Sequence record: DRR723986_4014
Length of the DNA: 64,000 nt
Strand: one strand, 5' to 3'
The position numbers and the translations under genes were made by a program. The notes beneath the pieces are model-generated. The model did not search any database and was not told the DNA's origin. It worked only from the letters and a program-made list of their open reading frames with translations. Numbering within the stretch: the first letter of the stretch is position 1; the number at the start of each line of letters is the position of its first letter. Positions 1 through 26,470 of the stretch are shown here, piece after piece.

Positions 1-61
1 AACCATGCGTTGCAACGAAGTCGCCGAGCCAGTCAACTTTAAGAAACAGCCGACGTTATCT
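1..61 (+). repeat. attC-like site, cut by the window edge and apparently missing most of its right arm
   Basis: AACCATGCGTTGCAACGAAGTCGCCGAGCCAGTCAACTTT closely matches CACCCTGCGTTGCACCGGAGTCGCCGAGCTAGTCGACTTT at 2071-2110; ends in GTTATCT at 55-61. Confidence 0.6.
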
Positions 62-829
62 GGCTTCGCTTACGTGAACACGTTTACGTTTGACAATTTC
101 TACTACTTCGATTGTCAGCCCTACGACGAAAGCTGGTACGCCTACACGCATCCTCAAAAAGATCCGTTCTTGCATGGGCGCTTTTCAGTAGAGCAATGCG
201 CCTTTGTTTCACATGCCGAGAAGCTAGGTAAGTTTGACGAAACTCAGATATCTGAGATTGAACGACTTCTTGCAGTGCATCGAGACGAGATGCATCTTGA
301 GCAATTTGAGATTCACAAGAAGTGCCCGAAGCACTACCGCGAAATCTCGCCGAACTCTTACGCTTTCCGCGATTTGTTTTTGCGAATGCGTAACGGTGGT
401 AAATGGGACCCAAAATTCACCGTGGCTTGGGACAAGCTGACTGGCGGCGATCCGGCTTATCGCCTCAACCGAGAATTCGTTTGCCGTGTGACAACTCTGG
501 CATCAGACATTCCCCAGGATCAATGGATGGAAGAATTAAGCGAAAGCTGTCAGGACACGTGGACATACGACATTGCGCCATATCGCGAAGATGCTGAAAC
601 GTTTGAATCATACTTATCCGAAACTGTAGACACGATCTATTCGCCAACAGAGCCAAAAGAACATCTATACAAAGTTGAACGGATATTCTCGATAAACTCC
701 CTTTCAAATCTATATTTGATTCGTCATTCACGTGACACATACTTTTACTACAATGACCTTGGTGATGTTGTGGTTCCGGTGTTTCTGCCTCCGCAAAGCT
801 CTTCGTGGATGCCCAACTACATACTGTGA
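5..829 (+). CDS. Hypothetical protein (cassette ORF); true start uncertain because the ATG lies inside the attC-like repeat (GTG at 74 is an alternative)
   Basis: 274-aa ORF flanked by attC-like repeats; no family recognised. Confidence 0.6.
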   Translation: MRCNEVAEPVNFKKQPTLSGFAYVNTFTFDNFYYFDCQPYDESWYAYTHPQKDPFLHGRFSVEQCAFVSHAEKLGKFDETQISEIERLLAVHRDEMHLEQFEIHKKCPKHYREISPNSYAFRDLFLRMRNGGKWDPKFTVAWDKLTGGDPAYRLNREFVCRVTTLASDIPQDQWMEELSESCQDTWTYDIAPYREDAETFESYLSETVDTIYSPTEPKEHLYKVERIFSINSLSNLYLIRHSRDTYFYYNDLGDVVVPVFLPPQSSSWMPNYIL

Positions 830-834
830 TCGCC

Positions 835-924
835 AGGCAATTACATTGTGCACCGAAGTCGCGTCGGTTCCCGCAATTTGAAGTATTGCTCACTCGCGCA
901 ACTGGGTGGACATTGTCGTTATCC
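835..924 (+). repeat. attC-like site (degenerate left core AGGCAAT, right core GTTATCC)
   Basis: Left arm AATTACATTGTGCACCGAAGTCGCG aligns with the reverse complement of the right arm, AACGACAATGTCCACCCAGTTGCGCG; 90 bp. Confidence 0.7.
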
Positions 925-942
925 GACTGAAGCCAGCGGGAT

Positions 943-1443
943 TTGATGATCGACGAGTTGCTACTGTTAACTGTGTTTCCGCTGCTGTTTGCTGCGTTAC
1001 CCATTGTTGAATTGAAGTGCTTGTTTCGCGAAACTGAATCCGGTCGCATTCCATGGAATCGGCCCAAAAGCTCACCTAGACCTGCTATCCAACTTGCGAG
1101 CGGACTGCAGGCAACATGCGCGCTGTCACTGTTCGCGTTGATCTGGCTGTTGATTTTTGCCGGTTGCTGCCTCGCGGATCCTGCAGGACGGTCGCTCTTT
1201 GATCCAATGGGGCTGGGAGCACTTTCGCGGCGCAACCCTGATTCTGTCGCTACCGTATGGGCGGCGCTATCGAGCACCGCTCTAGTTCTCCATCTGCTCT
1301 TCGCTCCTGCTCTTGCGTTGACCGCAAACCTCCGACTTCCGAATCTGCTTGCAGTTCCCGCGTCCGTGCCATTGTTTACCGTCTCATGCTACACTGCATG
1401 GGCCGTGTTCCACCCGCTGTTCGCTCTCGAGAATGGCGGATAA
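943..1443 (+). CDS. Hypothetical membrane protein (cassette ORF)
   Basis: 166 aa with several hydrophobic segments; TAA stop overlaps the GGATAAC core of the next attC-like site. Confidence 0.7.
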   Translation: MMIDELLLLTVFPLLFAALPIVELKCLFRETESGRIPWNRPKSSPRPAIQLASGLQATCALSLFALIWLLIFAGCCLADPAGRSLFDPMGLGALSRRNPDSVATVWAALSSTALVLHLLFAPALALTANLRLPNLLAVPASVPLFTVSCYTAWAVFHPLFALENGG

Positions 1444-1528
1444 CCATCGCATTCACTCGGAGCCGAGTTTTCGAGCTTTTTCAAATAGAAACCCAACTCT
1501 CCCGGCCCGGTGATGCGGGTCGTTCGCC
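1438..1528 (+). repeat. attC-like site (GGATAAC ... GTTCGCC), the best preserved
   Basis: AACCATCGCATTCACTCGGAGCCG ... CGGCCCGGTGATGCGGGTCGTT forms an imperfect hairpin with unpaired extra bases; 91 bp. Confidence 0.85.
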
Positions 1529-1550
1529 TTCTTTGAGACGCAGCAGATCT

Positions 1551-2102
1551 TTGACAAACCCCTATACGCCCACGCGTGGTATTCGCGAGAGACTGGCAGA
1601 TGAAGCTGGAGCCCGGCAGTCATCGGCTTACGTCGGCAAAGCGACGCTGATCGTTGCTGGTCTGTGTCTGTACGCTTCAACGCCGTGGCGTGATGCGATG
1701 CTGTATTCGAGTATTCAGCAGCATGGCGGCTTTCCGCCAGCCGCTGACTCTATTGCCATAGGAATCGCCGCATCTTTCGTATCAATGATCGTCTTCTCTC
1801 CGATCGCGATGTTTCTCATTGGTTACGGGATAGGTCTCGCCAATGGATTGTATTTACTGCCATCGGTCCAAAGGTCTACTATTGTGTGGGGCGTCTGCGC
1901 GTCAATCGTCGTTGCAGTAATATTATGGATCGAAATTGAGACCCTCGTAATTGCCGCTAATTACGGTCCTGACTGGGGCTCGATTGCGTTAACATTCATC
2001 TATTTGGTCTATGCCTACATATGGTGGTGTTGCTCAATTTCCCACAAACGAATAGACAAGGAGACTGGCGCACCCTGCGTTGCACCGGAGTCGCCGAGCT
2101 AG
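1551..2102 (+). CDS. Hypothetical membrane protein (cassette ORF); probable TTG start at 1551 rather than 1257
   Basis: The longer ORF call runs through the upstream gene and attC; TTG at 1551 gives MTNPYTPT followed by about four TM-like segments; the stop lies inside the next attC. Confidence 0.65.
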   Translation: MTNPYTPTRGIRERLADEAGARQSSAYVGKATLIVAGLCLYASTPWRDAMLYSSIQQHGGFPPAADSIAIGIAASFVSMIVFSPIAMFLIGYGIGLANGLYLLPSVQRSTIVWGVCASIVVAVILWIEIETLVIAANYGPDWGSIALTFIYLVYAYIWWCCSISHKRIDKETGAPCVAPESPS

Positions 2103-2155
2103 TCGACTTTGCTAGACAATCCAACACTGTGATTCGTTGAACGCAGTCTTTCGTC
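2067..2155 (+). repeat. attC-like site (GGCGCAC ... TTTCGTC; both cores carry a point change)
   Basis: CTGCGTTGCACCGGAGTCGC ... GTGATTCGTTGAACGCAG hairpin; 89 bp. Confidence 0.75.
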
Positions 2156-2167
2156 GGTGAATCAGCC

Positions 2168-2980
2168 ATGAGATCTTATATTGCATTCGCGGTCGTTTTC
2201 CACGCGGTGGCCTTGCAGGCGTTCGCAGGTAATGACCGTGCTACGGATATGCGACGGACCATTGAATCCATACGCTCCGAGATTCAAAACAGTCCAGCTC
2301 ATGCCTGGGCTGGAGAATACCGCGGACATGAAGGGATCGACACCTTTACAACGCTGTATGTCGCTCCGAAGGCGGGAATTGCTTACGAGATGCACGGAAA
2401 TAGCGGCGTTTACGAGAGCAACTGCGGTTCAATTGAGATAGACGGGGACAAGATCTCAATTTCTTGGCGTCATCCCGAGGAACACGCTCATGTGCCTACA
2501 ATTGAACGTGAGCTACTCGTTGTGCTGTGGGATGATCTCGTCTTTCTTGTTCCTCGATGCGCGATTCACCGCTTTTGTCTAGATGCCAAACAGCATCGCT
2601 ATCGGTTATTGTCGAGTGAACTCACCCGAAATAGCGGAGCACAAAAGCAATTAGCCGGCAAACCTACGCTACCCAATGAATTCCAGATCTTCTGGGATCT
2701 TCCGCAGATGGAAGCTAGCAACGTATCAATCGCCAAGCCGCAATTCAAAAAAATTGACGCTGAGACTACACGGGCTACTCAGACGGTTACTTTGGATAAG
2801 GGTTCAGCACAGCATATTTACGTTGGAATGAGTTTAGAATGTCCACGTATCGCTCGTCGCTTCACCGTGACTGCAACAGACCAAGACTCCTGTACCGCAG
2901 AATCGATCGTTGTCGTGAAAAGCGGATCACCGCTGCGTCCAGCCCGACGTCGTTGGAGGTTAACGACATCCACGCGGTAG
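2168..2980 (+). CDS. Hypothetical secreted protein (cassette ORF)
   Basis: 270 aa; N-terminal signal-peptide-like MRSYIAFAVVFHAVALQAFA. Confidence 0.75.
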   Translation: MRSYIAFAVVFHAVALQAFAGNDRATDMRRTIESIRSEIQNSPAHAWAGEYRGHEGIDTFTTLYVAPKAGIAYEMHGNSGVYESNCGSIEIDGDKISISWRHPEEHAHVPTIERELLVVLWDDLVFLVPRCAIHRFCLDAKQHRYRLLSSELTRNSGAQKQLAGKPTLPNEFQIFWDLPQMEASNVSIAKPQFKKIDAETTRATQTVTLDKGSAQHIYVGMSLECPRIARRFTVTATDQDSCTAESIVVVKSGSPLRPARRRWRLTTSTR

Positions 2981-2989
2981 CGAAGAACC

Positions 2990-3080
2990 GACGAACTATG
3001 TGTTGCACGGTAGTTCCGGTGCCCGTTCGACTCTGCACAACCATTAGCCTACCGGAACACCGCGAGCAGATCCGTTTCCA
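2990..3080 (+). repeat. attC-like site (GACGAAC ... GTTTCCA)
   Basis: TGTTGCACGGTAGTTCCGGT ... ACCGGAACACCGCGAGCA hairpin with extra-helical bases; 91 bp. Confidence 0.75.
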
Positions 3081-3429
3081 CGCTAAGCAATGGACGGGCC
3101 GGAACCGGAATGTCGACCAGAACGGACCAGATACGGCCGGGGTGGTGGACTGCTGACTAGGGTGAAACTATTTGTTTCTGGCATGGACGAAGCTGCCGAT
3201 GTTTTGTTCCACCGGGCTCTACCAGTGATGGCAGACCAGCTCGGCAAATAGTTGGGCTGTCGAGCAAAACGCAGAGGCGCGGTGTCGCGGAGAACTGGCG
3301 GACAGGAATCCTCCGCGTGCTTTGGGGCGTCAGGCTTCGCGAGACGCCACTGAGTCGCAGGGTTGTGTTCGCTACATTGATTGATCGCTCGTCGTCGGCC
3401 GCGTGCCCCGTACCTTACTGCGTCTATTT

Positions 3430-3912
3430 ATGATTACTATTGACCTTGAACAATTCGTCGTGTCGGGCAGTATTCCCAAAATCGATCACCAAACTACGCG
3501 CGCTGATCTACTGGAACTGCTTGGACCCAATGAGCCAGGTTATCCTGACGTCATGAGCTACGGACACGTCGGGTTTGACTTTCCAGGCGGCTCAAAGTTT
3601 CTACGTGGGGTCTTAATATCTTTTCCACGGTTCTTCACGGGTAACGAGCGGCAGCGGCAAATCGATTCTTGGCCCGAAAAGCGATTCGAGTAGAGGTTGG
3701 GCCGGCTGACGCAGCACCTGACAGTCGATGAGGCTCGAAAGATCCCCGAGCTATCCGATTGGCATTGCTATGACGATTATTGGAACTCGTCTGGAGTCGG
3801 TTGCACGATGGAATCGCCGGCGACTGGGGTTATGATACGCTTCCGGGCGGCCGCGGAATCGGAACCACGTGTAATCGAATTCATTACGGCCTACATCCGA
3901 CCTCCAAGTTGA
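3430..3912 (+). pseudogene. Cassette ORF interrupted by an in-frame TAG at 3691-3693
   Basis: ORFs 3403..3693 and 3697..3912 share a frame: ...WPEKRFE*RLGRLTQ...; TAG is one base from TGG (Trp). Confidence 0.65.
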
Positions 3913-3994
3913 GGGGCGGGGGAAGGAAGGCTGGAATTCGTTGGACGCGAGCAAGAAACGCGATACGGTTACAAAGTGGCGAAACCAAAGAGCG

Positions 3995-4070
3995 CAGAAT
4001 GCTGCACGCCGAGTCATCAAGCGACTTGTATTTTCGTGGATTATCTTGGCGACCGCATAATCTTTCATTT
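3995..4070 (+). repeat. Highly degenerate attC-like remnant (boundaries approximate)
   Basis: TGCACGCCGAGTCATCAAG ... CTTGGCGAC inner arms resemble the other repeats; outer cores not recognisable. Confidence 0.35.
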
Positions 4071-4088
4071 CCATGGACGAACTAAAAA

Positions 4089-4475
4089 ATGAACCGGATC
4101 ACCCATCGCGTATTTGGTACTTTGGAGAAGCTGTCTGAGATCCCCGACGTCAATATGCATTGGTGGAGAGGCTCGCTGATTTTTCCACCGATAGCCGCAC
4201 GCGTGGCGTTGGAACTACACGCAGTGCCGACGGGACCAAATGACATCCAAGTTTATTCGTACGAAAAACTCTTGCAGAACTATTCAATGCTGCGCGAACG
4301 CGGCACGGAGAATGGTGACGTCCCCTCAGACTCTGATGATTGTCACCTAACAAAGATTACGTTTTTCGTGAACGGACACCTCGATCTTCACTTCAATTCC
4401 GGCGGGGAAGAGTGTCTGATATACGCGGACGCCGATGCCGCGTACATGACGCCCAGCGAAGCGATGGAGTGCTGA
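4089..4475 (+). CDS. Hypothetical protein (probable cassette ORF)
   Basis: 128-aa ATG ORF between attC-like remnants. Confidence 0.55.
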   Translation: MNRITHRVFGTLEKLSEIPDVNMHWWRGSLIFPPIAARVALELHAVPTGPNDIQVYSYEKLLQNYSMLRERGTENGDVPSDSDDCHLTKITFFVNGHLDLHFNSGGEECLIYADADAAYMTPSEAMEC

Positions 4476-4518
4476 TGCGCCTCGGTGTGTATGCTTCGCT
4501 TGTTGACGCGATCAGTGC

Positions 4519-4588
4519 GACGAACGAGCGCATCCATTCAGGCCGCACAAGCGGGCCAGTGCGTCTGCTGGTGCAAGGTTCGTTAATG
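4519..4588 (+). repeat. Short attC-like hairpin (GACGAAC ... GTTCGTTAATG)
   Basis: AACGAGCGCATCCATTCAGGCCGCAC ... GTGCGTCTGCTGGTGCAAGGTTCGTT imperfect inverted repeat. Confidence 0.5.
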
Positions 4589-4664
4589 GCCGTCAAAGGC
4601 ACAATGCGAGTTTTGGTGAAAAAGCGTTGTATTGCTATTCTCTAACGTGAGGTTAACCAAACCA

Positions 4665-5084
4665 ATGGAGTGCTGGAGTGGCCAATATTCGTTTGACGCT
4701 CGCTTTGAGTCCGTTTTTCCGGGTGGCCTCAAGACGGTGGACTTTGAGTTCACTTTTCGTTTGCGGCTGTTCGGCATTTTGACCGGAGAGATTCGTGATG
4801 GTGCTGACGGAATTCCAGAACCAGCTACCGCATACGGCAGAATCGTCGCTTATAAATCGATTTGGTTCACCAAGACCTATCCACGCACTTGGGCTCCCGC
4901 CCCAGAGACCGGCGAGTTGTACGTCTTCGACAACCGCAAGCATGTTGTAAGATACAGGGGTGTCTATGATTCTCCCGAAGTTCTTCTTGGCACATGGGAG
5001 ATCCACTCGCAGCGTCGAGTAGTAAACGGCACTGAGTACGAGATCCCTCGAGTTACGGGCACATGGAACGCGCGTAAATCCTAG
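4665..5084 (+). CDS. Hypothetical beta-rich protein (probable cassette ORF)
   Basis: ATG at 4665 is in frame with ORF 4632..5084; W-x-G-x-Y start and GTW motifs; followed 5 bp later by a GGCGAAC core. Confidence 0.7.
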   Translation: MECWSGQYSFDARFESVFPGGLKTVDFEFTFRLRLFGILTGEIRDGADGIPEPATAYGRIVAYKSIWFTKTYPRTWAPAPETGELYVFDNRKHVVRYRGVYDSPEVLLGTWEIHSQRRVVNGTEYEIPRVTGTWNARKS

Positions 5085-5089
5085 AAGTG

Positions 5090-5165
5090 GGCGAACTAGG
5101 GGATGCACAACGCGACGCCCCTCCATGCTCGTTCCCTGCGTCACTGCCGGTGGATCGTGATATGA
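5090..5165 (+). repeat. Degenerate terminal attC-like site
   Basis: GGCGAACTAGGGGATGCAC...GCGACGC pairs partially with GCGTCAC...GTGGATC. Confidence 0.4.
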
Positions 5166-5436
5166 GTACCGAGCACGCGCCTTGAACAGGTGACAACCTA
5201 ACTCGCGAAGCGGCGAGAGTAGTGAAATCAGGTAATAGATCAACAGGGCGATTGAGGCGGGTTCAGTGCTGAATTTTCGTTGACATGCCAATGTCGGTTC
5301 AACGTGATCCAAAGTGGATTACGCGCATTTCACTCGCTTTGCGAGTTTAAATCAATCTCTGTTCGCAGGGTTTTCGCAGCCCAGCTATGGTACTTGGGGA
5401 GGTCCCAGATGTTCGCCGATAATCGTTCAAAGAAAA

Positions 5437-5865
5437 TCACGCTTCGATTGGTCCATCAGTCACCAGGAACCGTCTAAATCGATCACGCAGCGCAGCTTCA
5501 ATTCTTCGCGGGCGTTCCGTTTCGAAGTCGATGAAGAGTCCACGCTGTCGCCCTGTAGCAGCAACCTTGCCTGTACCGCTAACAAACTCAAAATCCATCC
5601 ATGCGGAAGCCTTCGACAACTCAGAAAGCCAGATCTTGCCGAGCACCGTGTCCCCCAAGCGTAGCGGATGTTTGTAAGACACGACCGTGTCCATGAGGAT
5701 AGGGACGAAGCCGTCCTTGCCAGTATCGGCAATGGGTAGCCCCACCGCATCGAGTAGCTTGCACCGTCCAATTTCCATCCATTTGATGTATACGATATTG
5801 CTCACATGTCGCATGTAGTCAATTTCGTATGGATAAATCTGAAGTTCGAACTCTAAGTGTTTCAT
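5437..5865 (-). CDS. Acyl-CoA thioesterase (4HBT/YbgC hot-dog fold)
   Basis: YEIDYMRHVSNIVYIKWMEIGR matches the D-x-x-x-H-V-x-N-x-x-Y motif; YKHPLRLGD. Confidence 0.9.
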   Translation of the reverse strand: MKHLEFELQIYPYEIDYMRHVSNIVYIKWMEIGRCKLLDAVGLPIADTGKDGFVPILMDTVVSYKHPLRLGDTVLGKIWLSELSKASAWMDFEFVSGTGKVAATGRQRGLFIDFETERPRRIEAALRDRFRRFLVTDGPIEA

Positions 5866-5970
5866 GACTCTTTATCGACCTAGCGCAGATGTGTGAGTAC
5901 CGCCTCCGGGAGAAGCAGCCATTCGGGCATCCAACCGGCGGAGCTGTCGACAAGCCGCATTGCCTGCTAA

Positions 5971-6038: not shown

Positions 6039-6776
6039 CTACTCGCGAAGCGAAGAGAGTAGTCGAATCAGGTAGTAGAACAACAGGGCGACTGAGGCGA
6101 ACAACGCCAAGCTGGCCGCAACGTGTTGATCAGTGTGGTAACGATGAAGAACGTTTGATGTGTCGTAAAGGATATATGCCGAAGCAAGCACGACCATCGC
6201 AACTGAGAACCAGACTCCCAGAGTGAATCCGCCGGGGAGAACCATGTTGACAACAATTAGCCCCATGGCGGCGAGGCCCGCAATCCAAAGGATCTTACCC
6301 AGCCAAGAGAAGTCAGCTTTGGTGAGAAATACCATCGCCGTCAGACCAATAAAAATGATCGACGTTAGGATTCCAGCGGTTTGAGGAATCTCCCAACTTT
6401 GTCCAGCGACGTACCAAGCGTAGGACATCATTGGGAGAAAGATCAGGGCTTGAGCGACGATATACAGCCCCAGTCCGGCGTACTGCATCGCTTTGCTCGA
6501 TCGAGGCGATTGGGCCCAGTAGTCAGCAATGTAGCTGGCGCCAACAAACAGGCCGAACACAATGATCATGCCGAACCGCCCCATGCCCATCAGAGTTTGG
6601 AGCACTGTTTCGGGTGGGAAGATGGTCAGCAAAATCGCTTCCAAAACCACGAAGGCGATCACAGCAGCGGAAAGGTGAGTGTACGTCCTTTGAATGAAGG
6701 CTGTCCGCTCGTCGAGCTGTGCATTGGCCGCAATGCGGTAATCCATCGAATTGGTCGTCTGGTCGCCAAACTGCAT
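6039..6776 (-). CDS. Bax inhibitor-1/YccA family membrane protein
   Basis: About seven TM segments; FIQRTYTHL, KADFSWLG, ILYDTSNV motifs; ATG at 6776 has an AGGAG RBS. Confidence 0.9.
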   Translation of the reverse strand: MQFGDQTTNSMDYRIAANAQLDERTAFIQRTYTHLSAAVIAFVVLEAILLTIFPPETVLQTLMGMGRFGMIIVFGLFVGASYIADYWAQSPRSSKAMQYAGLGLYIVAQALIFLPMMSYAWYVAGQSWEIPQTAGILTSIIFIGLTAMVFLTKADFSWLGKILWIAGLAAMGLIVVNMVLPGGFTLGVWFSVAMVVLASAYILYDTSNVLHRYHTDQHVAASLALFASVALLFYYLIRLLSSLRE

Positions 6777-7151
6777 GGCAAAACTCCTGTGAATCCTAAG
6801 AGGCAAAACGTTAGTACCCTAAGATCACGGCACGGGTGCTAAACGTTGTTTCATTCTGTCAATCTTACAGTACGAATGTCAATGTAGCATGGTCAACAAA
6901 TTGCATACCAACTAAAGGAAATATCTTACTGTCGTCAAAGGTGGGGGTTGCGCAGTGCTATTCCAACTGGAAAAACTGCAATCAGCTACATAAAAGTCCG
7001 GTCCGGTGTCCCCGAACAGCTAATGACCAGCGTATCGCCTGGGCACCAGTGCTAACTGCCTGTGCACCCGCCCTGAGGCGACAAGCAACTTCGGAAACCG
7101 TGGCAGAGCCTTAACATGACCGTATTCTACTGAAGAAATGGACCGTTCTGG

Positions 7152-10503: not shown

Positions 10504-12438
10504 ATGAATAGACCACTGCTTCTCCTGTGGGCACTGATCGCTGTTTGCTCGGTGGCTCTGACTATGCTCGCGTGGATGTGGAATTCACAGCACACAGTCG
10601 CCGCGGAGCAACGCGGCGAGGAAATTCTAGCGACCCAACTCGCCGAGCCAGCCCGTCGGATCGAAGAAGTCTTCGTGGGCTATGACCAGGCATTCGAGAA
10701 GGACTTCGCAAGCGCCAAACTTGAGAGTACCGCCGAGTGCATGCGACTCGCTCGTTTGGCAACCGTTCAAATGCTGGTCGTCGTAGACGCTTCAAACAAC
10801 TTGGTGTACCCAACGCCTACCTCGTTTCGCAGCGAGAGCGAGGCGATGTTGCTGGCGGAAGCACTTGAGTTGCTGCGGGAATTCGACGACCCGCGTCCGA
10901 AGCGCCCCGCGGCTACGACGATTCCTGGTAAAGATGCTAGTTCTGACGACGCAGCTATTGCGATCGGCAATCTGTCCGATGGCAATGAACGACAAACGCA
11001 ACTAGCTAAAAGTCAAGCGACGAGTGCCGGTGCCGGAGATCGCAATGAGTCTTTGGATGGTGTTCGGTTTCGCACCTATGGCAATCGCGCACCGAGAACC
11101 GCCCCAACTCGGCAGCAGGTTGGATCCTCCGATCAGGCGGCGGAGGCGGACAGCGCGACGGATCCAAAGCAAACAAATAACGACTCAGGCGACTATCGTG
11201 AACTCACAAGCGACGCGCAAGAGGGCCGAGCGAACTCGCAGGAGGAGTTTAGCCCGACTGTTGGCTGGGTGACCTGGTACCACCGACGCGGAATGATGCT
11301 GGGTTACCTCGCCGGGGATCCAGGGGGATACCGTTGTCTGGCCATCATGCCCAGTGCGCGATGGTTGGCGGATGTAATCGCAGGCTTACCAAGTTCTGAG
11401 GATGCCACACCACCGACGCCGTTTGGGGGGCCCAATGAAAAACTGAACGCCGGTGCATCTCCGTTCGAAGGTTGCCTGATTCAGTTGTCGGACGTCGAGG
11501 GGAAGGTTGTTTATCAATGGAGTATTGATGGTTCTCCCGAGACCTTCGAGGCTGAACTGCCACACAGCGTGCAGCAGCCACTCGCTGCCCCTCTGGAGGG
11601 CTGGCGTTTGCGATTGCAAGCACCGGAGCGAGTGTGGGCGACTATATCTGCAGGGCAAGACTCGCGAGTTGTTTGGCTGGGCATAGTCGGCCTAGTGGCT
11701 GCAATGACCGCAGTTGGTGTGCTCATTACGTTGAATTTCAACCGTGCCGTTGAGCTTGCGAAGCGTAGGGTTTCATTCGTGAATCAAGTTTCACATGAAC
11801 TGCGAACTCCGCTAACAAATATCCGGATGTATGCAGACTTGCTTGAACGTGAGATTGACCAGGAGCCCCAGTCAACCAAACTAGGGGTGATTCGGAACGA
11901 GGCACGGCGACTCGGACGACTCATCGACAACGTTCTCCTGTTTGCCAAAGCCGGGAAATCGCGTCTTGAGCTGAAACCTACGCTATGCGACATCGACCGC
12001 ATCATTACGGAGGTGGTCGATACGTTCCGACCACGGCTCGACGATGCTGTGATGGAGATCAATTTGGATTTGCAAGTTGGGCAGATGCTACCCGTTGATG
12101 GTGTTGTCTTGGAACAGTTGATGGTAAACCTGATTGCAAACGCCGAGAACTATGCCGCGGAAGGGAAACGGATCGACATTTCATCGCGGCTGGTTGATTC
12201 GTCAGTTCAAGTCGCCGTACGTGACTATGGCATGGGAGTACCGGCCAAATTGCGAGAGCGAATCTTTCAGCCCTTTTACAGAAGCAGTGACCGAATCGAC
12301 GCGCCGTCAGGGACTGGTATCGGGCTGACAATCGTTCGAGAGTTGGCGGAATTGCACGGTGGCAGTTGTCACTTAAGCGACACGTCGCCCGGGGCTGAGT
12401 TTGTCGTGCAACTGGCATTGCAAACCGATGCAACATAA
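10504..12438 (+). CDS. Membrane sensor histidine kinase
   Basis: Two TM segments; H box SHELRTPLTNI; N box NLIANA; DYGMG and GTGIGL. Confidence 0.93.
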   Translation: MNRPLLLLWALIAVCSVALTMLAWMWNSQHTVAAEQRGEEILATQLAEPARRIEEVFVGYDQAFEKDFASAKLESTAECMRLARLATVQMLVVVDASNNLVYPTPTSFRSESEAMLLAEALELLREFDDPRPKRPAATTIPGKDASSDDAAIAIGNLSDGNERQTQLAKSQATSAGAGDRNESLDGVRFRTYGNRAPRTAPTRQQVGSSDQAAEADSATDPKQTNNDSGDYRELTSDAQEGRANSQEEFSPTVGWVTWYHRRGMMLGYLAGDPGGYRCLAIMPSARWLADVIAGLPSSEDATPPTPFGGPNEKLNAGASPFEGCLIQLSDVEGKVVYQWSIDGSPETFEAELPHSVQQPLAAPLEGWRLRLQAPERVWATISAGQDSRVVWLGIVGLVAAMTAVGVLITLNFNRAVELAKRRVSFVNQVSHELRTPLTNIRMYADLLEREIDQEPQSTKLGVIRNEARRLGRLIDNVLLFAKAGKSRLELKPTLCDIDRIITEVVDTFRPRLDDAVMEINLDLQVGQMLPVDGVVLEQLMVNLIANAENYAAEGKRIDISSRLVDSSVQVAVRDYGMGVPAKLRERIFQPFYRSSDRIDAPSGTGIGLTIVRELAELHGGSCHLSDTSPGAEFVVQLALQTDAT

Positions 12439-13918: not shown

Positions 13919-15127
13919 CTAGTGTCCCGCAATACGTTTGGGGCTGCCAGGGCGGTTGATTGAGTGGCTCTTGCCGTCGCGCTTCCCCTGATTCATTGCG
14001 GCAGGGTCATGCTGACTTCGCCCATAAGACGACGTAGAACGTAAGCGAATGTTACACTCCTTGCGAAGCCATTCACGTGATCGATTGTGAACGGTGAGAA
14101 GCCGCGTCGCAATGAGTTCCCGCTGCCTCTCGGATTCGGCATTGGCCACCGGGTCATAGTTGGACCGGTCGCTGCTCTTGGGTAGTCCAGCAACGTAGCC
14201 TTCGCAGTAAGAGGCTCCGCTTCCACGTGTATAACTCTTGTACTTCAACTGTGCGGCAGCGGCGATCGAAACAAGTAGCTCTTTGAAGAGTGTGATCGCG
14301 TTCTCGACATCACGAACAGGTCCATAGAACACAAACACGCGGCGATGCTTGTGATTGCTCAAAAAGTACTGGACAGTTGTCATTACTTCGTCGCAGATGT
14401 AGGTGCCAAGTGCCTTCTCCCAGGCGCAGGCTTTCTGGCCATTTAGGAAGCATTGCATCTTGGTGAATCGAAATGAATCATCTTCATCTTTTTCTTTGAC
14501 GTCTTCCCTGGATAGATTGTTGGCGAGCATCATCTGCTGCATCATCCGGATAGCATTCCGCTTCTCGGCTTCGGTACTGCCAGCGTTCTCCGCCGTTCGG
14601 TCCAGAGCCCGGAGTCGGCGAAGAATCTTGTCGAACTGCTCCTGACTCAGCTCTTGTTGCGGCTGGCCCGAATTACTTGCGCCGGTTCCGACGTTCCGCA
14701 ATGCGTTTGTATCGCTACTGTTGGGGGAAGTCCAATAGGCTCGCAGCACGTATTCATCGTCGTCAGCTACATTCCAGGTGTCGTGCACGGTGCGATTGAT
14801 GACCGCAAACACATGATTGCACCTTCCATCTGAGTGGCTCACATGGGCAATGACCACGCCATCAGGTAGTTTCTCACAGGAAAACCCGGTTAAATCGGCC
14901 GTGTGCTGCGTCCAACCGTCCTTGGATAGAAACTGGTGAAACACGTCAAGATTGACGCCATTTCGAGGCGTCTTGCGTGCCGCCTTCCCGAGTCGGTCGT
15001 AGATAGCCTTGTAAGCGGTGCCCGTCGCGATTGCCACTGATCGTGCACAGCAATCACCCGCATAGCCGACGTATCCAGCGGCCGCACGACCACCATCATT
15101 CCAGATAAACGCGGATGATTCAGCCAC
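13919..15127 (-). CDS. DUF2786-containing protein with an N-terminal putative papain-like (Cys-His-Asp) domain
   Basis: KILRRLRALDRTAENAGSTEAEKRNAIRMMQQMMLANNL resembles DUF2786; N terminus has GDCCARSVAIA...HVFAVINRTVHDTWN. Confidence 0.7.
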   Translation of the reverse strand: MAESSAFIWNDGGRAAAGYVGYAGDCCARSVAIATGTAYKAIYDRLGKAARKTPRNGVNLDVFHQFLSKDGWTQHTADLTGFSCEKLPDGVVIAHVSHSDGRCNHVFAVINRTVHDTWNVADDDEYVLRAYWTSPNSSDTNALRNVGTGASNSGQPQQELSQEQFDKILRRLRALDRTAENAGSTEAEKRNAIRMMQQMMLANNLSREDVKEKDEDDSFRFTKMQCFLNGQKACAWEKALGTYICDEVMTTVQYFLSNHKHRRVFVFYGPVRDVENAITLFKELLVSIAAAAQLKYKSYTRGSGASYCEGYVAGLPKSSDRSNYDPVANAESERQRELIATRLLTVHNRSREWLRKECNIRLRSTSSYGRSQHDPAAMNQGKRDGKSHSINRPGSPKRIAGH

Positions 15128-15211
15128 GACTATCCCTCACTGTATGTTTGAAACCAACCGATTGAAGAAGCGGCCGCACGCTTCAATCTTGAACCGGGAT
15201 GATTCAAACGG

Positions 15212-18200
15212 TCAAGTTACTGCGACTGGTTCGCCAAGCTTATCTAGCTCGATGATCCTTGCATTGGGCAATGATCGTCGGACTACGTCCAAGGATCGAG
15301 AGTGGCAACTGAAGAGTATGGTTTGGACGCGACTGTCCCAGTTCCCAAATGATTCGATTGCCGATTCCATTCGATCATCGTCGAAGTTTACCAAGCAATC
15401 ATCCATTAGAACAGGAAGCGGCTCGTGGGTTTCAGCGTACTGTTGGACGAAGGCCATGCGAAGTGCCAAGTAGAGCTGTTCGCGAGTCCCGGTGCTGAGT
15501 TCGCTGGGCCACTTTGTTGCCCCATCGGCTCGTCGTACGCTTACCTGTTGCGACTTAGCCGATTTGCCTTGCGGTTGATGTTCGACGCCGACATACTTGC
15601 CGCGTGTCAACTGAGAAAGATAGTGTTTGGATAGTTGCAACAACCTTGGCTCATTCTCCTTGGCATGGAGTGCCAACGCTCGCTCTGCAACGAACACCGC
15701 GGTGCGCTGAACCAGCCACTGTTGAGCAAGTTCGGCAAGCTCCGACCGAGCGTTCTGAATCGACTGAAGATGCTCGGCCGACGCGTCGGAGTTGGACATC
15801 TGTTTCAATTGCTCTGCAAGTTGTCCAGACTTGCGGTCCGACTCTTGACGCTGAACGTCAAGATCTGCGAGGACGCGGTTCAGGTCTTCGACTTCGAGTG
15901 TGGCCGCTGATTCGTCGAGCGATTCCATGTCTTCAACCGAAACGCCGGACGACTCAATTGCGGACCGGCACTGGGCGATCGTTGCCCGAAATTCTTCAGC
16001 GTGGATGATCGACTGCATCACTTTATCAACACTGCCAACCGAACCAACAGCGGTGGCGATCTCTGCCAGTTTTTCATCAAGCAGAGTAAGCGACTCATCA
16101 AGTTCCTTGATTGTTGCCTCACAGTGTTCCAGTTCAGTCGAAAGGCGAAGTCGCTCTTGGGAGTTGGAGCGGTCTTTCTGAATCGCCGACAGCCATTGTT
16201 TGGCCAGATCCTCCGGAGGTATCTTGGAATCAACGGCCGAAGCAGCGTCTTCGCTCAAAGTACTCGAAACATCCTTGATCGAATTCTCGAATGCAGTGAT
16301 CTGTTCGTTCAGCTCGGTCGCTTGACGCAAGGTGCGAATGTGAGTGTTCAGCTCATGAGCAGCCCGGTCGAGCGTTTCGGTCAGTGCATCGAAATCAGCG
16401 ATGTCCCAACTGCCGCCAATCGTGTGCTCCATCAACCATCGCGAGAATTTGTCTTCAATTTGCACGACCGCCCGCTCAAGTTCAACTGAACGTGCATTGT
16501 TGCGATTCTGCGATTCGAGAAACTTGGCAGATCGTCGGGTCAACTGTTGATACGACTCACGGATCCGCTGCCAATCATTAAGGGACGCAACACAATCTTC
16601 GATGTCGAACTCGTCGCGCAGAACCTCGGGCCAATGATCGATTATTGCGTCGCGACGACTTCGCAGTACGCTTTGACTTTGGAGCAGCTTGCGGGCGGCT
16701 TCATCGATGCGAAGTTGCGCTGCGCACCACCTCGAGTAGTGTTCGCTCCAGGCCGCGAGTTCGCGAAGTGTTGCTGAGCGTAGCGGCAGTGCCTTTGTGT
16801 GTTCCTCTACTTCCGCACGTAACGCAGCCAGTTGGGCTTCTATGTGAGACATTGCCTCGGCGCATTCGCCGAGCTGCTGCTCTTTGTCGGCGAGCACTGT
16901 CTGCTCGTGCTGAATCTTCGCAAGGGTCTTTGCCGAGAGTGTCAACTCAGAGTACGCGTCATCGATTGCAAGAAACAGACTCTGCAGTTCGCCGAGTCGC
17001 TGCGTTTGTTCTTCAGCATCCAGTGTCTGAGCGATCAGCGGCTGTGAGAGATCGTCGTTCCAGTTCTGCAGCAATTTGTCACGACGCGACCGCAATTCAT
17101 CGATTCTTTCCAGCAGTTTAGTGCCGGTCAAGTCGTCCGCCGATTGTTCACGGCCACGAAGGCTATCGATCTCTTGCGATAGGGCAGCGGATTGCTTCTT
17201 GGCAGCTTCACGTTCTTTTAAAAGTTCTGCTTCAGTGGACAGCGTCTGATCAAACCACTTTAGATCTGGGGTCGAGAACGACGCGAGCAGGATTTCACCC
17301 GGCCGGAGGAGCGATGACGCTTTTTCTTGAAGTTCGACGAATCCAGGATCGGAACCTCGGCCTCTCAAATCCGCTTCGCATTGCTTCACCTCTTGCTCTG
17401 CCGCAACACAATCCTGGACAAGGCGGCTCAGATGCGCCAGTTCCGTTTGCTCTGGTGCGAGTTCGGCAACGAAATCATCGTCCAGATGCTCCGAAGCGAC
17501 TTGATCGATGTCAACTGTCAGTCCAGAGTTGGATGTGTTCGATGCTTGAAGTTGCTCGATGAATGCTCGCTGCAACTCCGACAAACTCTGGTCGGCAGAG
17601 CGAATCTGATCGCGAAGCGCTTGGGCATCTCGCCTCAATTCTTGTACTTCGGCCGAAGCATCTTTCCAGTGTGAACGCTGTCGCTGAGAGACTTGCGGCA
17701 AAATATCCGGGGTGGCAAGCAGTGAATCTAACGGCAACTCCAATTCAACTGCCAGCCCGGCAAGCACCGTGCGCGACTTGCTCGCCCCGTCACTCGACTC
17801 AACAAGTTGCTTTCGCTTGAATTCGATGTCTGCAGCCTGGTGTCCGAGCCGCTCGATGGCGGGCGCCTGGCTACTCGTTCCTGTTGTCCGAGGAAGTTGG
17901 TTGAGTAACTTTTGCGTGTAGATCAGCTTCTTTGATAGTTCTTCTTTGCGTTCCGCAAGACTCTTGCGTCGCTTGCTGTACTCCTGCCAGTTGGCAACCG
18001 CCGTCCGGTCCACTCCATCGGGCACATCAGTATGCTTCAGTCGCTCGGTCGCCTCGCGTAGAGCACGAAGCTTCGGAAGAACACGAAGCTGTGCCTGTAG
18101 CCGTGCGCGGCGATGGAAGCTAGATTCATATCGCTCCCGAAGTTGTTTCGAAAGTCGCTGGGTTTCTGCGATCTCAACGCGCAGATTGTTGATCGCCGTG

Positions 18201-18793
18201 GGGGCAACGGCCGCTTGGTTGGCCCTGTCGCGCTGTTCGGAGATGTGATCCAGCAGCTTGTTGATGGGATAGTTTGAGCCCCTTGAACGAAACAGGTCAC
18301 TGGCCGAATCAAGTGCCTTCTGCTTAAGCTCTTGCAGCAATGAAATGCCGGTCGTTCCGCTGCCAGTGAGCGCAGAAAACAGCGGCGTCGACTTCAGAGC
18401 GTCTTCGCCCTGTTGCAGTTCCTTCAGCGAGATTCCGAAGATCGCTTGGTAGTGCTCCAACGACAGATTGCCAAATGTTGCCGATAAATCCGCCTCTTCG
18501 ACTTCAATTGAGTCGATCGTGCACTGCACCTGATTAGATCGCCCCTTTCGACGGACAAACTCCAATTGCCGCCCGTCCTCCAGTTCGGCCGCAACACTGG
18601 ACTGCATCTGACCGGACAGCCGGTATGGCGTCCGCACTGGAAAACCGAAAAGCGACTGGCGGATTCCGTTCAACGCCGTCGTCTTGCCTGATTCGTTTGC
18701 ACCGTAAACGAGAACAAAGGGAGCGGAATCGAATTCGAACCGACGGGACGCATAAACACCATAGTTCTCCAAGGAGATCGACTTAAGCTTCAT
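15212..18793 (-). CDS. YhaN-like (Rad50/SbcC superfamily, AAA_27) coiled-coil ATPase
   Basis: Walker A GANESGKTT, long coiled coil, signature LSTGTREQLYLALR, Walker B VLMDD, SCH. Confidence 0.9.
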   Translation of the reverse strand: MKLKSISLENYGVYASRRFEFDSAPFVLVYGANESGKTTALNGIRQSLFGFPVRTPYRLSGQMQSSVAAELEDGRQLEFVRRKGRSNQVQCTIDSIEVEEADLSATFGNLSLEHYQAIFGISLKELQQGEDALKSTPLFSALTGSGTTGISLLQELKQKALDSASDLFRSRGSNYPINKLLDHISEQRDRANQAAVAPTAINNLRVEIAETQRLSKQLRERYESSFHRRARLQAQLRVLPKLRALREATERLKHTDVPDGVDRTAVANWQEYSKRRKSLAERKEELSKKLIYTQKLLNQLPRTTGTSSQAPAIERLGHQAADIEFKRKQLVESSDGASKSRTVLAGLAVELELPLDSLLATPDILPQVSQRQRSHWKDASAEVQELRRDAQALRDQIRSADQSLSELQRAFIEQLQASNTSNSGLTVDIDQVASEHLDDDFVAELAPEQTELAHLSRLVQDCVAAEQEVKQCEADLRGRGSDPGFVELQEKASSLLRPGEILLASFSTPDLKWFDQTLSTEAELLKEREAAKKQSAALSQEIDSLRGREQSADDLTGTKLLERIDELRSRRDKLLQNWNDDLSQPLIAQTLDAEEQTQRLGELQSLFLAIDDAYSELTLSAKTLAKIQHEQTVLADKEQQLGECAEAMSHIEAQLAALRAEVEEHTKALPLRSATLRELAAWSEHYSRWCAAQLRIDEAARKLLQSQSVLRSRRDAIIDHWPEVLRDEFDIEDCVASLNDWQRIRESYQQLTRRSAKFLESQNRNNARSVELERAVVQIEDKFSRWLMEHTIGGSWDIADFDALTETLDRAAHELNTHIRTLRQATELNEQITAFENSIKDVSSTLSEDAASAVDSKIPPEDLAKQWLSAIQKDRSNSQERLRLSTELEHCEATIKELDESLTLLDEKLAEIATAVGSVGSVDKVMQSIIHAEEFRATIAQCRSAIESSGVSVEDMESLDESAATLEVEDLNRVLADLDVQRQESDRKSGQLAEQLKQMSNSDASAEHLQSIQNARSELAELAQQWLVQRTAVFVAERALALHAKENEPRLLQLSKHYLSQLTRGKYVGVEHQPQGKSAKSQQVSVRRADGATKWPSELSTGTREQLYLALRMAFVQQYAETHEPLPVLMDDCLVNFDDDRMESAIESFGNWDSRVQTILFSCHSRSLDVVRRSLPNARIIELDKLGEPVAVT

Positions 18794-20078
18794 CGTCTTG
18801 CTCCCTTAGCAATCCGGCCGTTAGTAGACTGGCCGCCTCAGCTACGATGGGTTCCAGTTGGAGTGTGTTTGCGACGGGTTGCTCCTGCGTGGCTGGGCTA
18901 AGATCAGCAACTAGGTCGGGCAAGTCCCGCTCGGCCTTCCGCAGAAGTTCATCAAGCGCCGTTTGCAGCTCACTGCGAACTACATCACTTTCCTGAATTT
19001 GTTCCACGACCCTGGAAACATACTCTAGAGGCACATCCACAGACGCATCCGCACGTGCGATGTCGGGAAGCGATTTTGTTTTAAGGCGTTCGAGCCAAAC
19101 GTTGCCCAGCTCGTTGAAGCTTTCCGCGATGACTTCGGTCAGTTGCCCCTGAGTCGCAACACTTGCAAGTTCACTGTGTAGCCTGGTTTGCCCCGTCAGG
19201 TCAATTCGCAGCGCGTGCTCGGCTGCTGAATCGTCGCGAATGACAGGCCGCACCGCTTCATTCACCAGGTGCGGAATATCAGCCGCCCGCTCGGCGGTCG
19301 ACACGTCGACCTGAAGGTGCTTCCACCGGACCGAGTCGGTGTCGACAAACGTAACGTCTGCTAGTCGGCCGTCTTCGATCGAAACGAGGTTGACGCCCTT
19401 CGCTCCAGGTTCACGAATATGACGTCCTTGAATGCAACCACTGTAGCCGACGTAGCACTGCTGGCTGAGCGACGCTTCGGTTCGGGCGTGAATGTGCCCC
19501 AGAGCCCAGTAGTCGTAGCCTTTCGCGTCCAAAACACTCACGGTCGTCGGCGCGTAGGTGTCATGGTTCGCGTGGCCGGAAAGGGAAGTGTGGAGGACAC
19601 CAATATTAAAGTAGCCGTCGACAGCCAATGGGTATTCAGCGGCTAAGTCGTCTTGCACGCTGCGGGACGAAAAACTCTGACCATGAATGGCGAGACCTGC
19701 TGCTTCAATCAGCACTGTTTCGGGTTGATCACTGCGAAGTTGAGTGATGCCATCGGACCATTTAGCAGACTTGCCCGCGGCACTGTAAGCATCATGGTTT
19801 CCTTGAATCAAAACGACTTGAATTCCTTCCGCCGTCAAACGTCTGAATTGTCCTTCGAGCCATATGGCCGAACTTGAGTCACGGACTGGGCCGTCGAATA
19901 GATCTCCGGCGATGACGAGTGCCGCGACGTTCTGCTCAAGTGCGAGGGCAACGATCTTCTCAACCGCGATTCGCGTCGCGCCACGAAGGCGTTTCGCTGC
20001 TTCGGGGGCAAGTTTTTTCAGGCCTGCCAACGGGCTGTCCAGATGGAAATCCGCCGCGTGGATAAATTTTACTGTCAT
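18783..20078 (-). CDS. YhaO-like (Mre11/SbcD) metallophosphoesterase nuclease
   Basis: HAADFHLDSP, AGDLFD, GNHD, LHTS, YWALGHIH; overlaps the ATPase start by 11 bp. Confidence 0.92.
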   Translation of the reverse strand: MTVKFIHAADFHLDSPLAGLKKLAPEAAKRLRGATRIAVEKIVALALEQNVAALVIAGDLFDGPVRDSSSAIWLEGQFRRLTAEGIQVVLIQGNHDAYSAAGKSAKWSDGITQLRSDQPETVLIEAAGLAIHGQSFSSRSVQDDLAAEYPLAVDGYFNIGVLHTSLSGHANHDTYAPTTVSVLDAKGYDYWALGHIHARTEASLSQQCYVGYSGCIQGRHIREPGAKGVNLVSIEDGRLADVTFVDTDSVRWKHLQVDVSTAERAADIPHLVNEAVRPVIRDDSAAEHALRIDLTGQTRLHSELASVATQGQLTEVIAESFNELGNVWLERLKTKSLPDIARADASVDVPLEYVSRVVEQIQESDVVRSELQTALDELLRKAERDLPDLVADLSPATQEQPVANTLQLEPIVAEAASLLTAGLLREQDDEA

Positions 20079-20101
20079 CAAACTTCCTTGTGCGCGGCAG
20101 C

Positions 20102-26100: not shown

Positions 26101-26470
26101 TATCGGTCGCGAAAGGGAATTTCGCGTCGTAGAGTCGTTCGGGAAGTCCCCCGATAGTCAGTAGTTTCGGCGGGTAGAGAATAATGCCTTCCGACTCAGC
26201 GCGGATCGAAAGGATCTCGTTCAGTCGGCGGCAAGCCATGCTGCCCGGCAAGACAACCAGTACGCTTCGCAGGTCGCACGTCCGCTCGCTACGAAATTCT
26301 TGGAGCAAACGATCTGCAGTAGCTTGCAAGATCGGCGTGTTTCCGCCCAAGAAAACTCGTTGACCTATCGTACCAACGCTTGCGCTTGGTGACGCATCGT
26401 TGGATACTTGGTTGCCTGTTTCCGAACTTCCGCTATTCAAAATACCAGTCCTTTCGGGTCTCCGGTCCAC
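20102..26470 (-). CDS. Fused AddB-like nuclease + AddA-like UvrD helicase-nuclease
   Basis: N half: ACPYRFY, GRVDRID..WDYKTS, LQLPLY. C half: ASAGTGKT, TFTRKAA, LDEFQDT, VGDTKQAIYSWRGG, TVHKSKGLEF, YVAMTRAK, GAIDRL..FDFKTD. One uninterrupted 2122-aa frame. Confidence 0.9.
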   Translation of the reverse strand: MDRRPERTGILNSGSSETGNQVSNDASPSASVGTIGQRVFLGGNTPILQATADRLLQEFRSERTCDLRSVLVVLPGSMACRRLNEILSIRAESEGIILYPPKLLTIGGLPERLYDAKFPFATDTVQELVWAECLKNTPSDELTVLLPTPPATDATVAWLELGRVLRKLHRELASEQLNFADVAEHFGNHSEGDRWRLLGQLQAKYLERLDTLGMWDVQTARLVALEQNETAAYVKENPRQKILVVGCVDLNATQRSMLRSVSPLVEIWVAADQTDAHKFDSLGGLESQLWQELDLDIDERQLLVTNSPDQQAALVSGVLGQWQGQYHIRELTLGIPDSSLIGAVRRQLDSVGVATRHGAGDALTSTEPAVLLKLIAAYASTRHFRDFAALIRHPAVSNVIRQTKTTVEDNWLSEIDKYSTAVVPKLLDGFICESAPGAKTFSAVYNTVTKWLSKLPKKPRRLSGWVQPLLQTLATAYEGLSGEEENAADQLLFQSATRVAAHIGALRELPKQLDPTVDSSEIIQWLLRAMDTELVAEKPDAQSLEILGWLELALDGAPGLIVAGMHDGVVPDSINSDAFLPNSLRRQLGLLDNSQRFARDLYSMQLMLKTRRDVKFVVGRKDAVGDPLTPSRLLTACKIEQLPARVLHLIDESHCDRLPEFRSPDLLIGEEDSDGRLVIPLPQKRAPLKRMSVTAFRDYLACPYRFYLKHVLRLRGEDDATREMDAATFGVLVHETLDGLGEPHMCDCTDAEAIETFLLERLEQLASEQFGHNPPPAVLIQIEQARLRLQAFAPKQAARAEAGWVIKHVEVAVEEKDQVLLGSGDERLALIGRVDRIDYNADLNQWAIWDYKTSESAKSPLTVHYTEKAGWKDLQLPLYRHLASKLGVEGEPTLGYISVPKQATSTGFYPAEFTAEQLAASDAKSHEVASSVVRGEFWNDDSPARVEYDDFERICQSGTSQNAPSISHQMTEDLWRAPEIKIDSETVAEASRPGILTIQQSPSDYSATMIRASAGTGKTFQLSNRLLEIILRGEDVDDILATTFTRKAAGEILDRVLMRLASACYQTKQLEELQTFCGAHITAASCLAALRKITKTIHRLRISTLDSFFAQLARTFGLEMGLPPGWSTMDPAREPIAQVDCIARLLDAHDRQTLVHLVQMLAKGESTRQVIQQVRQTVQSGFSIYRSTTEHAWDTLPLPPAPSEGAIESALKTLESASLNQKSADAQLQKLHLMASIGDWENVIEHGIYEKIDDDEPTYYRKPIPGDLCFALGVISERAAAEILPARRRQTVASYDVLSAYDKEYLSMMKVSRQMAFSDVAHFLANWIQGQAEQDASPEQVSTLEYRLDCRIRHLLLDEFQDTAPEQWNVLRPLAVAEASRTTEQTLDQTTSVQRAIADAQSMPSEPGEASQASPGSFFCVGDTKQAIYSWRGGVAEIFDSVSQDIPSVEQHTLARSFRSSPAVIETVNTVFSNLSNHSNFSGCESMASSWSKNFPEHETALTDIDGYVRLQNTLKQSHRMPPDQKEFESLSFVANQIAELTQQTGCSVGVLFRTNAQVARMIGLLRQRGVSASQDGGNPLTDSAAVQLLLSLVHLGDHPGDRIAQFHVETSPLMDSLPLHPRKEPVELALWLRSKVARDGLARTLNHMATGISASMNSWDAFRVKQLIELAETFDREGGGRLSGFEEIVETQKAALPSSSQVKVMTVHKSKGLEFDAVFLPDLSTSMTSQNPLFVLRGEDPCKPATGVLRYMNSSLQRKLPDDWQDAFDAAKDAAIKESLCLLYVAMTRAKRALYMYARPSKSAPSAEFGSLLQSVLGNRDLASKPETLVYEHGNSHWYSGTESPVDMALQSDSEGESGDHASSAEQLPSLRLNTEPSRSTARMLQVTGPSNKPKSDVLEFADAFSHSKSAGAARGKLIHAFLQQITWVEEFGLDDTQLHRIARSTLPPDELAVVSVSAVIRDFRRIIKQPNVYSAIGRNRYRWQESSSDVVTIEIDTERPVNLLVENQLISGAIDRLAVVYRNGQPESAEIFDFKTDAYDQRLSLIWLAERVDFHRPQMNMYASLVGQLFGLPLEKIKSFLVMVNTDEIARIDHSDDPDSVHNHSDTATAGLLAADHASK

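Follow-up and report, generated by a model that had tools for sequence, protein, structure and literature searches.

Probable distal end of a decaying integron gene-cassette array of the Pirellulaceae type in a 64-kb stretch of planctomycete DNA

Eight open reading frames (ORFs) or ORF pieces, A to H (E being doubtful), lie on the + strand within the first 5.2 kb of sequence record DRR723986_4014, which we analysed as one window of 64,000 nucleotides (the whole stretch, 5' to 3'). They are separated by imperfect hairpins (Table 1). A sequence-only reading had taken this part for an integron-type array, in which short co-oriented ORFs are each followed by an attC recombination site. The shared orientation was confirmed; none of the ORF products could be placed in a family of Pfam, NCBIfam or PADLOC at E<=0.01, and there were no resistance, toxin or defence genes among them. 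As set out below, the segment from position 1 to about 5170 very probably forms the distal end of a gene-cassette array such as integrons have in Pirellulaceae chromosomes, and this array is decaying.

Table 1. Hairpins (s0-s7 and a possible relic) and ORFs in the first 5.2 kb of the window. R1 and R2 are the covariance models described in the text; broken pairs are counted out of 22.
Feature	Position	Strand	Length (nt)	R1	R2	Broken pairs	Remarks
s0	1-61	+					partial attC at window edge; left arm intact; right arm gone except R' GTTATCT (55-61)
ORF A	74-829	+					GTG start at 74; frame open from base 2; no family
s1	835-924 (models align 838-924)	+	90	18.3 bits, E 0.007	20.4 bits, E 0.004	5, plus 3-nt deletion	R'' AGGCAAT, R' GTTATCC; degenerate attC
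ORF B	946-1443	+					hydrophobic protein; TAA stop (1441-1443) inside R'' of s2
s2	1438-1528	+	91	61.9 bits, E 7e-16	69.5 bits	2	R'' GGATAAC, R' GTTCGCC; well-preserved attC
ORF C	1698-2102	+					membrane protein; 1698 is the first ATG after s2; final 12 codons lie within s3
s3	2067-2155	+	89	29.5 bits, E 3e-6	28.3 bits	4	R'' GGCGCAC, R' TTTCGTC; degenerate attC
ORF D	2168-2980	+					N-terminus resembles a signal peptide (predicted)
s4	2990-3080	+	91	26.9 bits, E 2e-5	33.6 bits, E 9e-7	2	R'' GACGAAC, R' GTTTCCA; last site that the models recognise
ORF E (doubtful)	3090-3251	+					no family
possible extra relic	3289-3373	+	85				GGAGAAC...GTTCGCT, by eye alone; 3343-3363 complements the s3 left arm
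cassette gene F	3403-3912	+					in-frame TAG (3691-3693) breaks the gene
s5	3991-4070	+					claimed remnant; opening AGCG complements CGCT of the possible relic's R' (3370-3373)
ORF G	4089-4475	+					no family
s6	4519-4588	+					claimed remnant; 70-nt hairpin within GACGAAC...GTTCGTT
ORF H	4632-5084	+					homologues known
s7	5090-5165	+					claimed remnant at distal array end; GGCGAAC-TAG-GGGA-TGCAC left arm consensus-like; closing stem and GTT lost

The ORFs and hairpins are arranged as cassettes would be. ORF stops fall 6-10 nt ahead of the site (A, D) or within it (B, C), all four ORF-site pairs being on the + strand, and the next ORF begins 13-22 nt past the site. Promoter-like sites occur at chance level and none lies inside a site, as judged with the σ70 consensus, from which planctomycete promoters may differ. 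The GC content of the array stretch is 0.51-0.53 vs about 0.55 in most of the window. A single frame stays open from 1257, inside cassette B, across s2 to the end of cassette C at 2102. From the end of s2 to 1698 this frame contains no ATG, GTG or TTG, although codons for hydrophobic residues lie ahead of 1698. It is therefore uncertain where C really begins, or else the gene is damaged.

We built a covariance model (R1) from six sites of three other Pirellulaceae genomes, with no window site included, and ran it over the window with filters off. The six sites are 89-91 nt long and come from three loci, two and three of them being about 1 kb apart in arrays. Aligned alone, they gave 22 pairs, with 96.2% of 132 cells paired and compensatory change in 9 pairs, and their covariation score was reached by none of 500 shuffles. 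R1 recovered s1-s4, all on the + strand, within 3 nt of the coordinates read by eye or exactly there. A second model (R2), made from 100 sites of 37 relatives' loci (95.7% of 2193 cells paired; compensatory change in 16 of 22 pairs), again found these four sites, with no further match below E 0.08 in the window. Clearly, s1-s4 are genuine attC sites.

Two further matches were rejected. Below E 0.01, R1 gave a single other match in the 64 kb, at 10941-11018 (-) with E 0.002; it is part of a histidine-kinase gene, has no TGCAC core and weakens to E 0.6 under R2. An R2 match at 59946-60003 (-), E 0.085, is a GC-rich stem followed by a T-run, and is terminator-like rather than an attC.

The same element is widespread in Pirellulaceae. 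Scanning with R1 at E<=0.001 detected it in 123 of 151 sampled genomes, many of which have at least 28 scored candidates. The matches form long one-directional runs, for example from 238,942 to 308,695 on one contig of genome G025. IntI-type recombinases were found beside the arrays: in all five array-rich genomes tested TIGR02249 was matched above its 265-bit cut-off (7 genes, 359-424 bits), whereas none of 14 control genomes passed this cut-off. At five of the seven IntI genes, the first attC is 0.9-1.2 kb from the integrase match and on the opposite strand, so that the two are divergent. This arrangement is the classic integron layout. Over the whole sample, IntI scored above the cut-off in 69 of 151 genomes and gave a match at E<=1e-40 in 81, of which 80 have the element. 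The other 43 of the 123 element-bearing genomes, some of them incomplete metagenome-assembled genomes (MAGs), gave no IntI match at E<=1e-40; integrase-less clusters therefore seem common in the family. The link between this element and IntI genes is one of association; IntI would be the enzyme that recombines it.

Some of the above-cut-off integrase matches carry an in-frame TAA (G025:C1:226492-227439, locus L071; G013:C354; G134:C1). These may be dead integrases accompanied by large arrays, the one beside the G025 match being about 70 kb long.

The 14-nt pattern TGCAMCGRAGTCGC, used to find loci in 201 Pirellulaceae genomes, matched in 99 of them, and most of 30 inspected loci were chance matches inside genes. 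The full element was present at L011, L012 and L034 and partly at L022 and L035, and at no other inspected locus. The motif AAC-N7-TGCAC, with up to one mismatch, was likewise uninformative alone (80 matches over the window vs 60 expected, standard deviation 8.8); in L001, the corresponding locus of the nearest genome found (see below), it occurred 16 times vs 15 expected.

The 100 relatives' sites define a uniform family. Its consensus is G-N-N-(G/T)-AAC for R'' and GTT-(C/A)-N-N-C for R', with AAC and GTT conserved at 98-100%, and the left arm reads AAC, 7 nt, TGCAC, 3 nt, A, G. The left-arm motif noticed by eye in the window is real, being this family consensus. The departure of the window cores from RYYYAAC/GTTRRRY also proved to be a property of the whole family, since 0 of 100 relatives' sites have the first half and 1 of 100 has the second. 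In attC cores only AAC/GTT is strictly required; for this reason we did not treat the textbook core as defining.

The consensus structure of the relatives' sites has the paired R and L boxes and extrahelical bases that the sequence-only reading had asked to see: 4 + 18 pairs, a spacer of 3 vs 4 nt, and two bases of the top strand that stay unpaired, namely G in 87 and A in 98 of the 100 sites. On the bottom strand these are C and T; classic attC sites have G and T as extrahelical bases. The length is 89-92 nt in 86 of 100 sites. The loop (positions ~40-57 of alignment A3) is near-constant in length, is partly conserved as TTT..AATGGA..TC (about 65-78% per column) and can pair as TTTTC/GAAAA around a 5-nt loop. 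It is thus unlike the 'variable terminal structure' of classic attCs.

Cury et al. (2016, PMC4889954) describe how recombination at G|TT makes the sites of an array chimeric. The outer bases of R' then belong to the next cassette and should complement the R'' of that cassette. In the relatives, 56 of 60 junctions showed full complementarity between the last 4 nt of R'(n) and the first 4 of R''(n+1), and the remaining four were complementary at three positions (mean 3.93), compared with means of 2.12 within sites (n=93) and 2.02 (standard deviation 0.13) for random pairs. Three of four window junctions were also fully complementary: s1>s2 (GTTATCC>GGATAAC, the R'' of s2 being the exact complement of the R' of s1), s2>s3 (GTTCGCC>GGCGCAC) and s3>s4 (tTTCGTC>GACGAAC), s0>s1 reaching only 2/4. 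We regard this R'/R'' complementarity as the strongest evidence that the units are, or were, true cassettes.

The junctions also bear on the idea that the hairpins are non-integron repeats merely resembling attC, such as palindromes like repetitive extragenic palindromic (REP) sequences or miniature inverted-repeat transposable elements (MITEs), terminators or regulatory RNA. In folding, three of the four sites do not surpass shuffled sequence, their cores are non-canonical, and the 14-nt core pattern also matches single dispersed places, mostly inside genes, as such an explanation would have it. However, what recurs in one-directional arrays beside IntI is the full 90-nt element, and the 56 perfect junctions are unexplained except by G|TT recombination. 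The sites gave no Rfam match at E<=1. Terminator-like sites occur at chance level (8 vs 5.9, standard deviation 2.5), and the attC sites lack T-runs. This explanation is largely refuted, and we give it only a very slight chance.

Each unit of the array comprises a promoterless + ORF followed by an attC of about 90 nt. Judging from the family, the bottom strand of the attC would fold as an imperfect hairpin in which a short spacer without pairing separates an R box containing AAC/GTT from a long L-box stem, and the R''-L'' arm would have two unpaired bases, which on the top strand are G and A. The IntI tyrosine recombinase would cut at G|TT; cassettes would therefore be discrete units, excisable as circles and re-insertable. 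Comparison of sequences showed that the window sites belong to the family adjoining IntI in relatives and bear the chimeric-junction footprint of recombination at G|TT. We infer that this stretch is no longer turned over, because s1 and s3 are mutated, s0 and the sites past 3080 are eroded, and F has a nonsense codon.

The array is old and decaying. AAC...GTT is kept only in s2 and s4, while s1 has AAT...GTT and s3 has CAC...TTT. No site past 3080 passes R1 or R2, although F and H are cassette genes elsewhere. For s0, bases 1-33 matched positions 5-37 of an nhmmer profile of the 100 relatives' attCs (E 0.003), bases 2-40 are 87% identical to 2072-2110 in the s3 left arm, and neither R1 nor R2 gave a match; of the remnant that had been proposed at 1-61, the left arm stood up, and the right arm is missing apart from the R' heptamer.

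Contigs of four public runs (X1-X4) showed variation in the same region. At base 3692, three contigs of X2 and X4 have G (TGG), vs TAG in the window. Either the strain has acquired a nonsense mutation of its own in F, or the window record contains a sequencing error at this place. One X1 contig lacks 3016-3066, a 51-nt deletion in the centre of s4. One X2 contig joins 5180 to 5968 with 9 other letters, the segment of about 790 nt being absent; in that sample the array therefore meets the flank downstream of Bax1-I. In X1 and X2, contigs with 95-99% identity bridge D to F and G to H in window order, and no other gene order over D-H was found among the contigs listed. The distal part therefore looks static, which fits a fossil. 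The runs contain only 5-14% of sampled words, and stretches without contig cover, such as 301-900 in X1 and X2, say nothing on absence.

Two other contigs touch the edges of sites. An X3 contig that leaves the window at 1524 shares just about 32 nt with it, in the right arm of s2; this contig was not counted as an order polymorphism because it is possibly from another attC copy. In an X4 contig, the match to cassette A (55-102) begins no earlier than base 55, which is the G of the s0 R', and the DNA before this point is unlike the window, is not attC and ends in ...TAACAA. Here a cassette may adjoin other surroundings, for example an attI-like site; the junction is known from one 221-nt contig with 3 differences in 48 nt.

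The main competitor of a decaying array is a live one, in which the window would show the far end of a complete, active sedentary chromosomal integron, with intact intI and attI upstream of base 1 and cassettes that can still be excised. The arrays of relatives run for tens of kb from one intI (in G025, IntI at 226,492-227,439 accompanies the attCs listed above), this array certainly continues upstream, s2 and s4 keep AAC...GTT, and the X4 contig matching from base 55 fits a cassette boundary used in another context. Against this, s1 and s3 have lost AAC and/or GTT, triplets almost invariant in the relatives; sites past 3080 are unrecognisable and F is broken; the X1 and X2 contigs keep the window order over D-H; and more than a third of element-bearing genomes (the 43 of 123 above, some incomplete MAGs) have no IntI match. 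We consider an active integron a serious possibility, somewhat short of an even chance.

Homologues of the cassette genes D, F and H are rare, and several of them lie in attC arrays. F has homologues in 2 of 201 Pirellulaceae genomes, which span both halves without the stop and lie within attC arrays in both. H has homologues in 3 of 201 genomes, bounded by attC in 2 of 3, and D has distant homologues in 4 of 201, bounded by attC in 2 of 4. The attCs that follow the H homologues in G173 and G020 (L085:1921-2014; L084:1389-1482 (-)) are near-identical; the same cassette was therefore probably shared or inherited as a unit. G had no homologue among the 201 genomes, which is uninformative either way, and none of 49 pattern matches of the A protein in metagenome contigs was a relative. 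When the cassette proteins were compared by tblastn with 78 loci, the sole match was the Bax1-I flank gene in L001. The sequence-only reading had spoken of a pool of uncharacterised mobile genes. Uncharacterised they are; mobile was not borne out, the pool here being largely fossil because most of its sites look inactive.

Among the genomes found, the nearest is a MAG of an uncultured member of the Pirellulaceae (locus L001), with 92% protein identity at the neighbouring ATPase gene. From 6041 to the right, this genome and the window are collinear, with nucleotide identities of 76-78%. No attC was found in the 16 kb around the point in L001 that matches 6041, and none of the upstream genes of L001 is in the window. 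The array is therefore accessory DNA at a synteny break.

To the right of the array, a 59-nt copy of the 3' end of the Bax1-I gene (5199-5259 vs 6041-6099; 88% identical) lies 840 nt to the left of the original, the gene itself being at 6039-6806 (-). A 4HBT_2 thioesterase gene (5437-5865, -) sits between the two copies. The 5180-5968 segment has the look of a small insertion, the second copy of the gene end having arrived with it. Farther on, 13919-26470 (-) encodes a DUF2786/DUF7168 protein, an SbcC-like AAA_27 ATPase (1193 aa), a metallophosphatase (432 aa) and a 2122-aa ORF.

The absence of the region from the closest genome would also be expected of a phage or other mobile element inserted in the chromosome and carrying the array as a phage-borne cluster. 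However, the ORFs tested in 1-20 kb included no phage, transposase or integrase gene, the array is flanked on the right by ordinary chromosomal genes in collinear order with the relative, and the ORFs face the normal way relative to the attCs. We hold such an origin to be highly improbable.

A cluster of attC sites lacking an integron-integrase is termed a CALIN by Cury et al. (2016, PMC4889954), who also found integrons in Planctomycetes with IntegronFinder. The window resembles a CALIN in having at least two attCs less than 4 kb apart (four sites, 0.6-0.9 kb apart), no intI on the visible side, here the downstream one, and uncharacterised, non-resistance cassettes. The CALIN definition takes both flanks, and the window shows the downstream flank alone. 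From the orientation in relatives, an integrase is expected to the left of base 1, and the array certainly continues upstream, because the window begins inside an attC. We slightly favour a CALIN or inactive stretch over the tail of an integron. The broader proposal, that this is one or the other in a planctomycete, gained support from the Pirellulaceae MAG, the IntI-adjacent arrays of relatives and the chimeric footprint.

Several observations weigh against reading the stretch as a decaying cassette array. No recombination has been observed. There is no IntI-like frame in the 64 kb, in agreement with the first impression that no integrase was in view: the best tblastn match to seven relatives' IntI frames had E 0.077. 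No window site fits the textbook core RYYYAAC/GTTRRRY. In model scores, s1, s3 and s4 reach 18-34 bits vs 50-91 for most relatives' sites. Alignment A3 was fitted to the model, so pair counts lean towards structure. When bottom strands were folded, a check that had been proposed with the original claim, only s2 folded better than its shuffles (-19.3 kcal/mol, z -2.56); s1, s3 and s4 did not, the z of the others being -1.09 to +1.21. Free-energy folding is a weak test, uninformative for 7 of 8 candidates. The run contigs are short, of depth 2-5, and from mixed communities. Among the readable distal junctions, 2 of 3 fail the R'/R'' test. Finally, s5, s6 and s7 have no + match at E<=10 in R1 or R2.

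The three last-named remnants, claimed from the letters at about 3995-4070, 4519-4588 and 5090-5165, were thus not recovered, and what speaks for them is circumstantial. They sit where sites are expected, and three GRCGAAC heptamers occur on the + strand in 3081-5200 vs about 0.66 expected, which is suggestive. We aligned s7 with the attCs that follow the H homologues; nhmmer gave no better than E 10 there, at 5091-5108. For the cassette that follows s4, TGGAAAC would be the expected R'', but it is absent from the + strand of 3081-5200, and the possible extra relic between E and F had no match with R1, R2 or the nhmmer profile.

Integrons of this kind have been described before. Ghaly et al. 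(2021, PMC8352920) list a Planctomycetes-specific attC covariance model among 11 taxon models, and the listings in PMC9668308 and PMC8618304 include Planctomycetota among integron-bearing phyla. The sequence-only reading had suggested that the window cores could define a lineage-specific attC family; with the published Planctomycetes model, such a family is no novelty. The published model may represent the 90-nt family itself. The literature found on integrons in Pirellulaceae or Rhodopirellula consists of incidental mentions in listings.

The window agrees with the sedentary chromosomal integrons of Planctomycetota in phylum and in having co-oriented small uncharacterised ORFs, each followed by an AAC/GTT attC hairpin. 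The arrays of relatives stand beside a divergent intI, whereas the window has no visible intI and most of its sites are eroded. The Vibrio cholerae superintegron is a large chromosomal array, the attCs of which (VCRs) form a homogeneous, lineage-specific family of near-constant length. Pirellulaceae attCs are likewise uniform, as their narrow length range shows, but differ from VCRs in sequence family, R-box consensus and host phylum. Taken together, the array is an unremarkable case of a gene-capture system that was known from Planctomycetota before, and nothing here changes what is known about integrons.

A wider reading can be offered tentatively, and we think it rather less likely than not to hold as a whole. 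Pirellulaceae may share one strikingly uniform attC family of about 90 nt, with a loop of fixed length and partly conserved sequence, never a textbook R box, and extrahelical C and T on the bottom strand, present in about four-fifths of sampled genomes though IntI exceeds its cut-off in fewer than half. This could reflect a lineage-specific IntI-attC recognition code, and the window, taken with the variation in the public runs (the nonsense codon and the deletions inside hairpins), would then be a natural record of cassettes fossilising into ordinary chromosome after recombination has ceased.

The window adds one cassette array with eight uncharacterised genes to the integron pool of Planctomycetota. 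The covariance model combined with the R'(n)/R''(n+1) test makes a recipe for recognising the attC family of this phylum. The features of decay, namely mutated AAC/GTT triplets, hairpin deletions that differ from sample to sample and a nonsense codon in a place where other samples have a sense codon, give a modest but concrete view of how an array dies.

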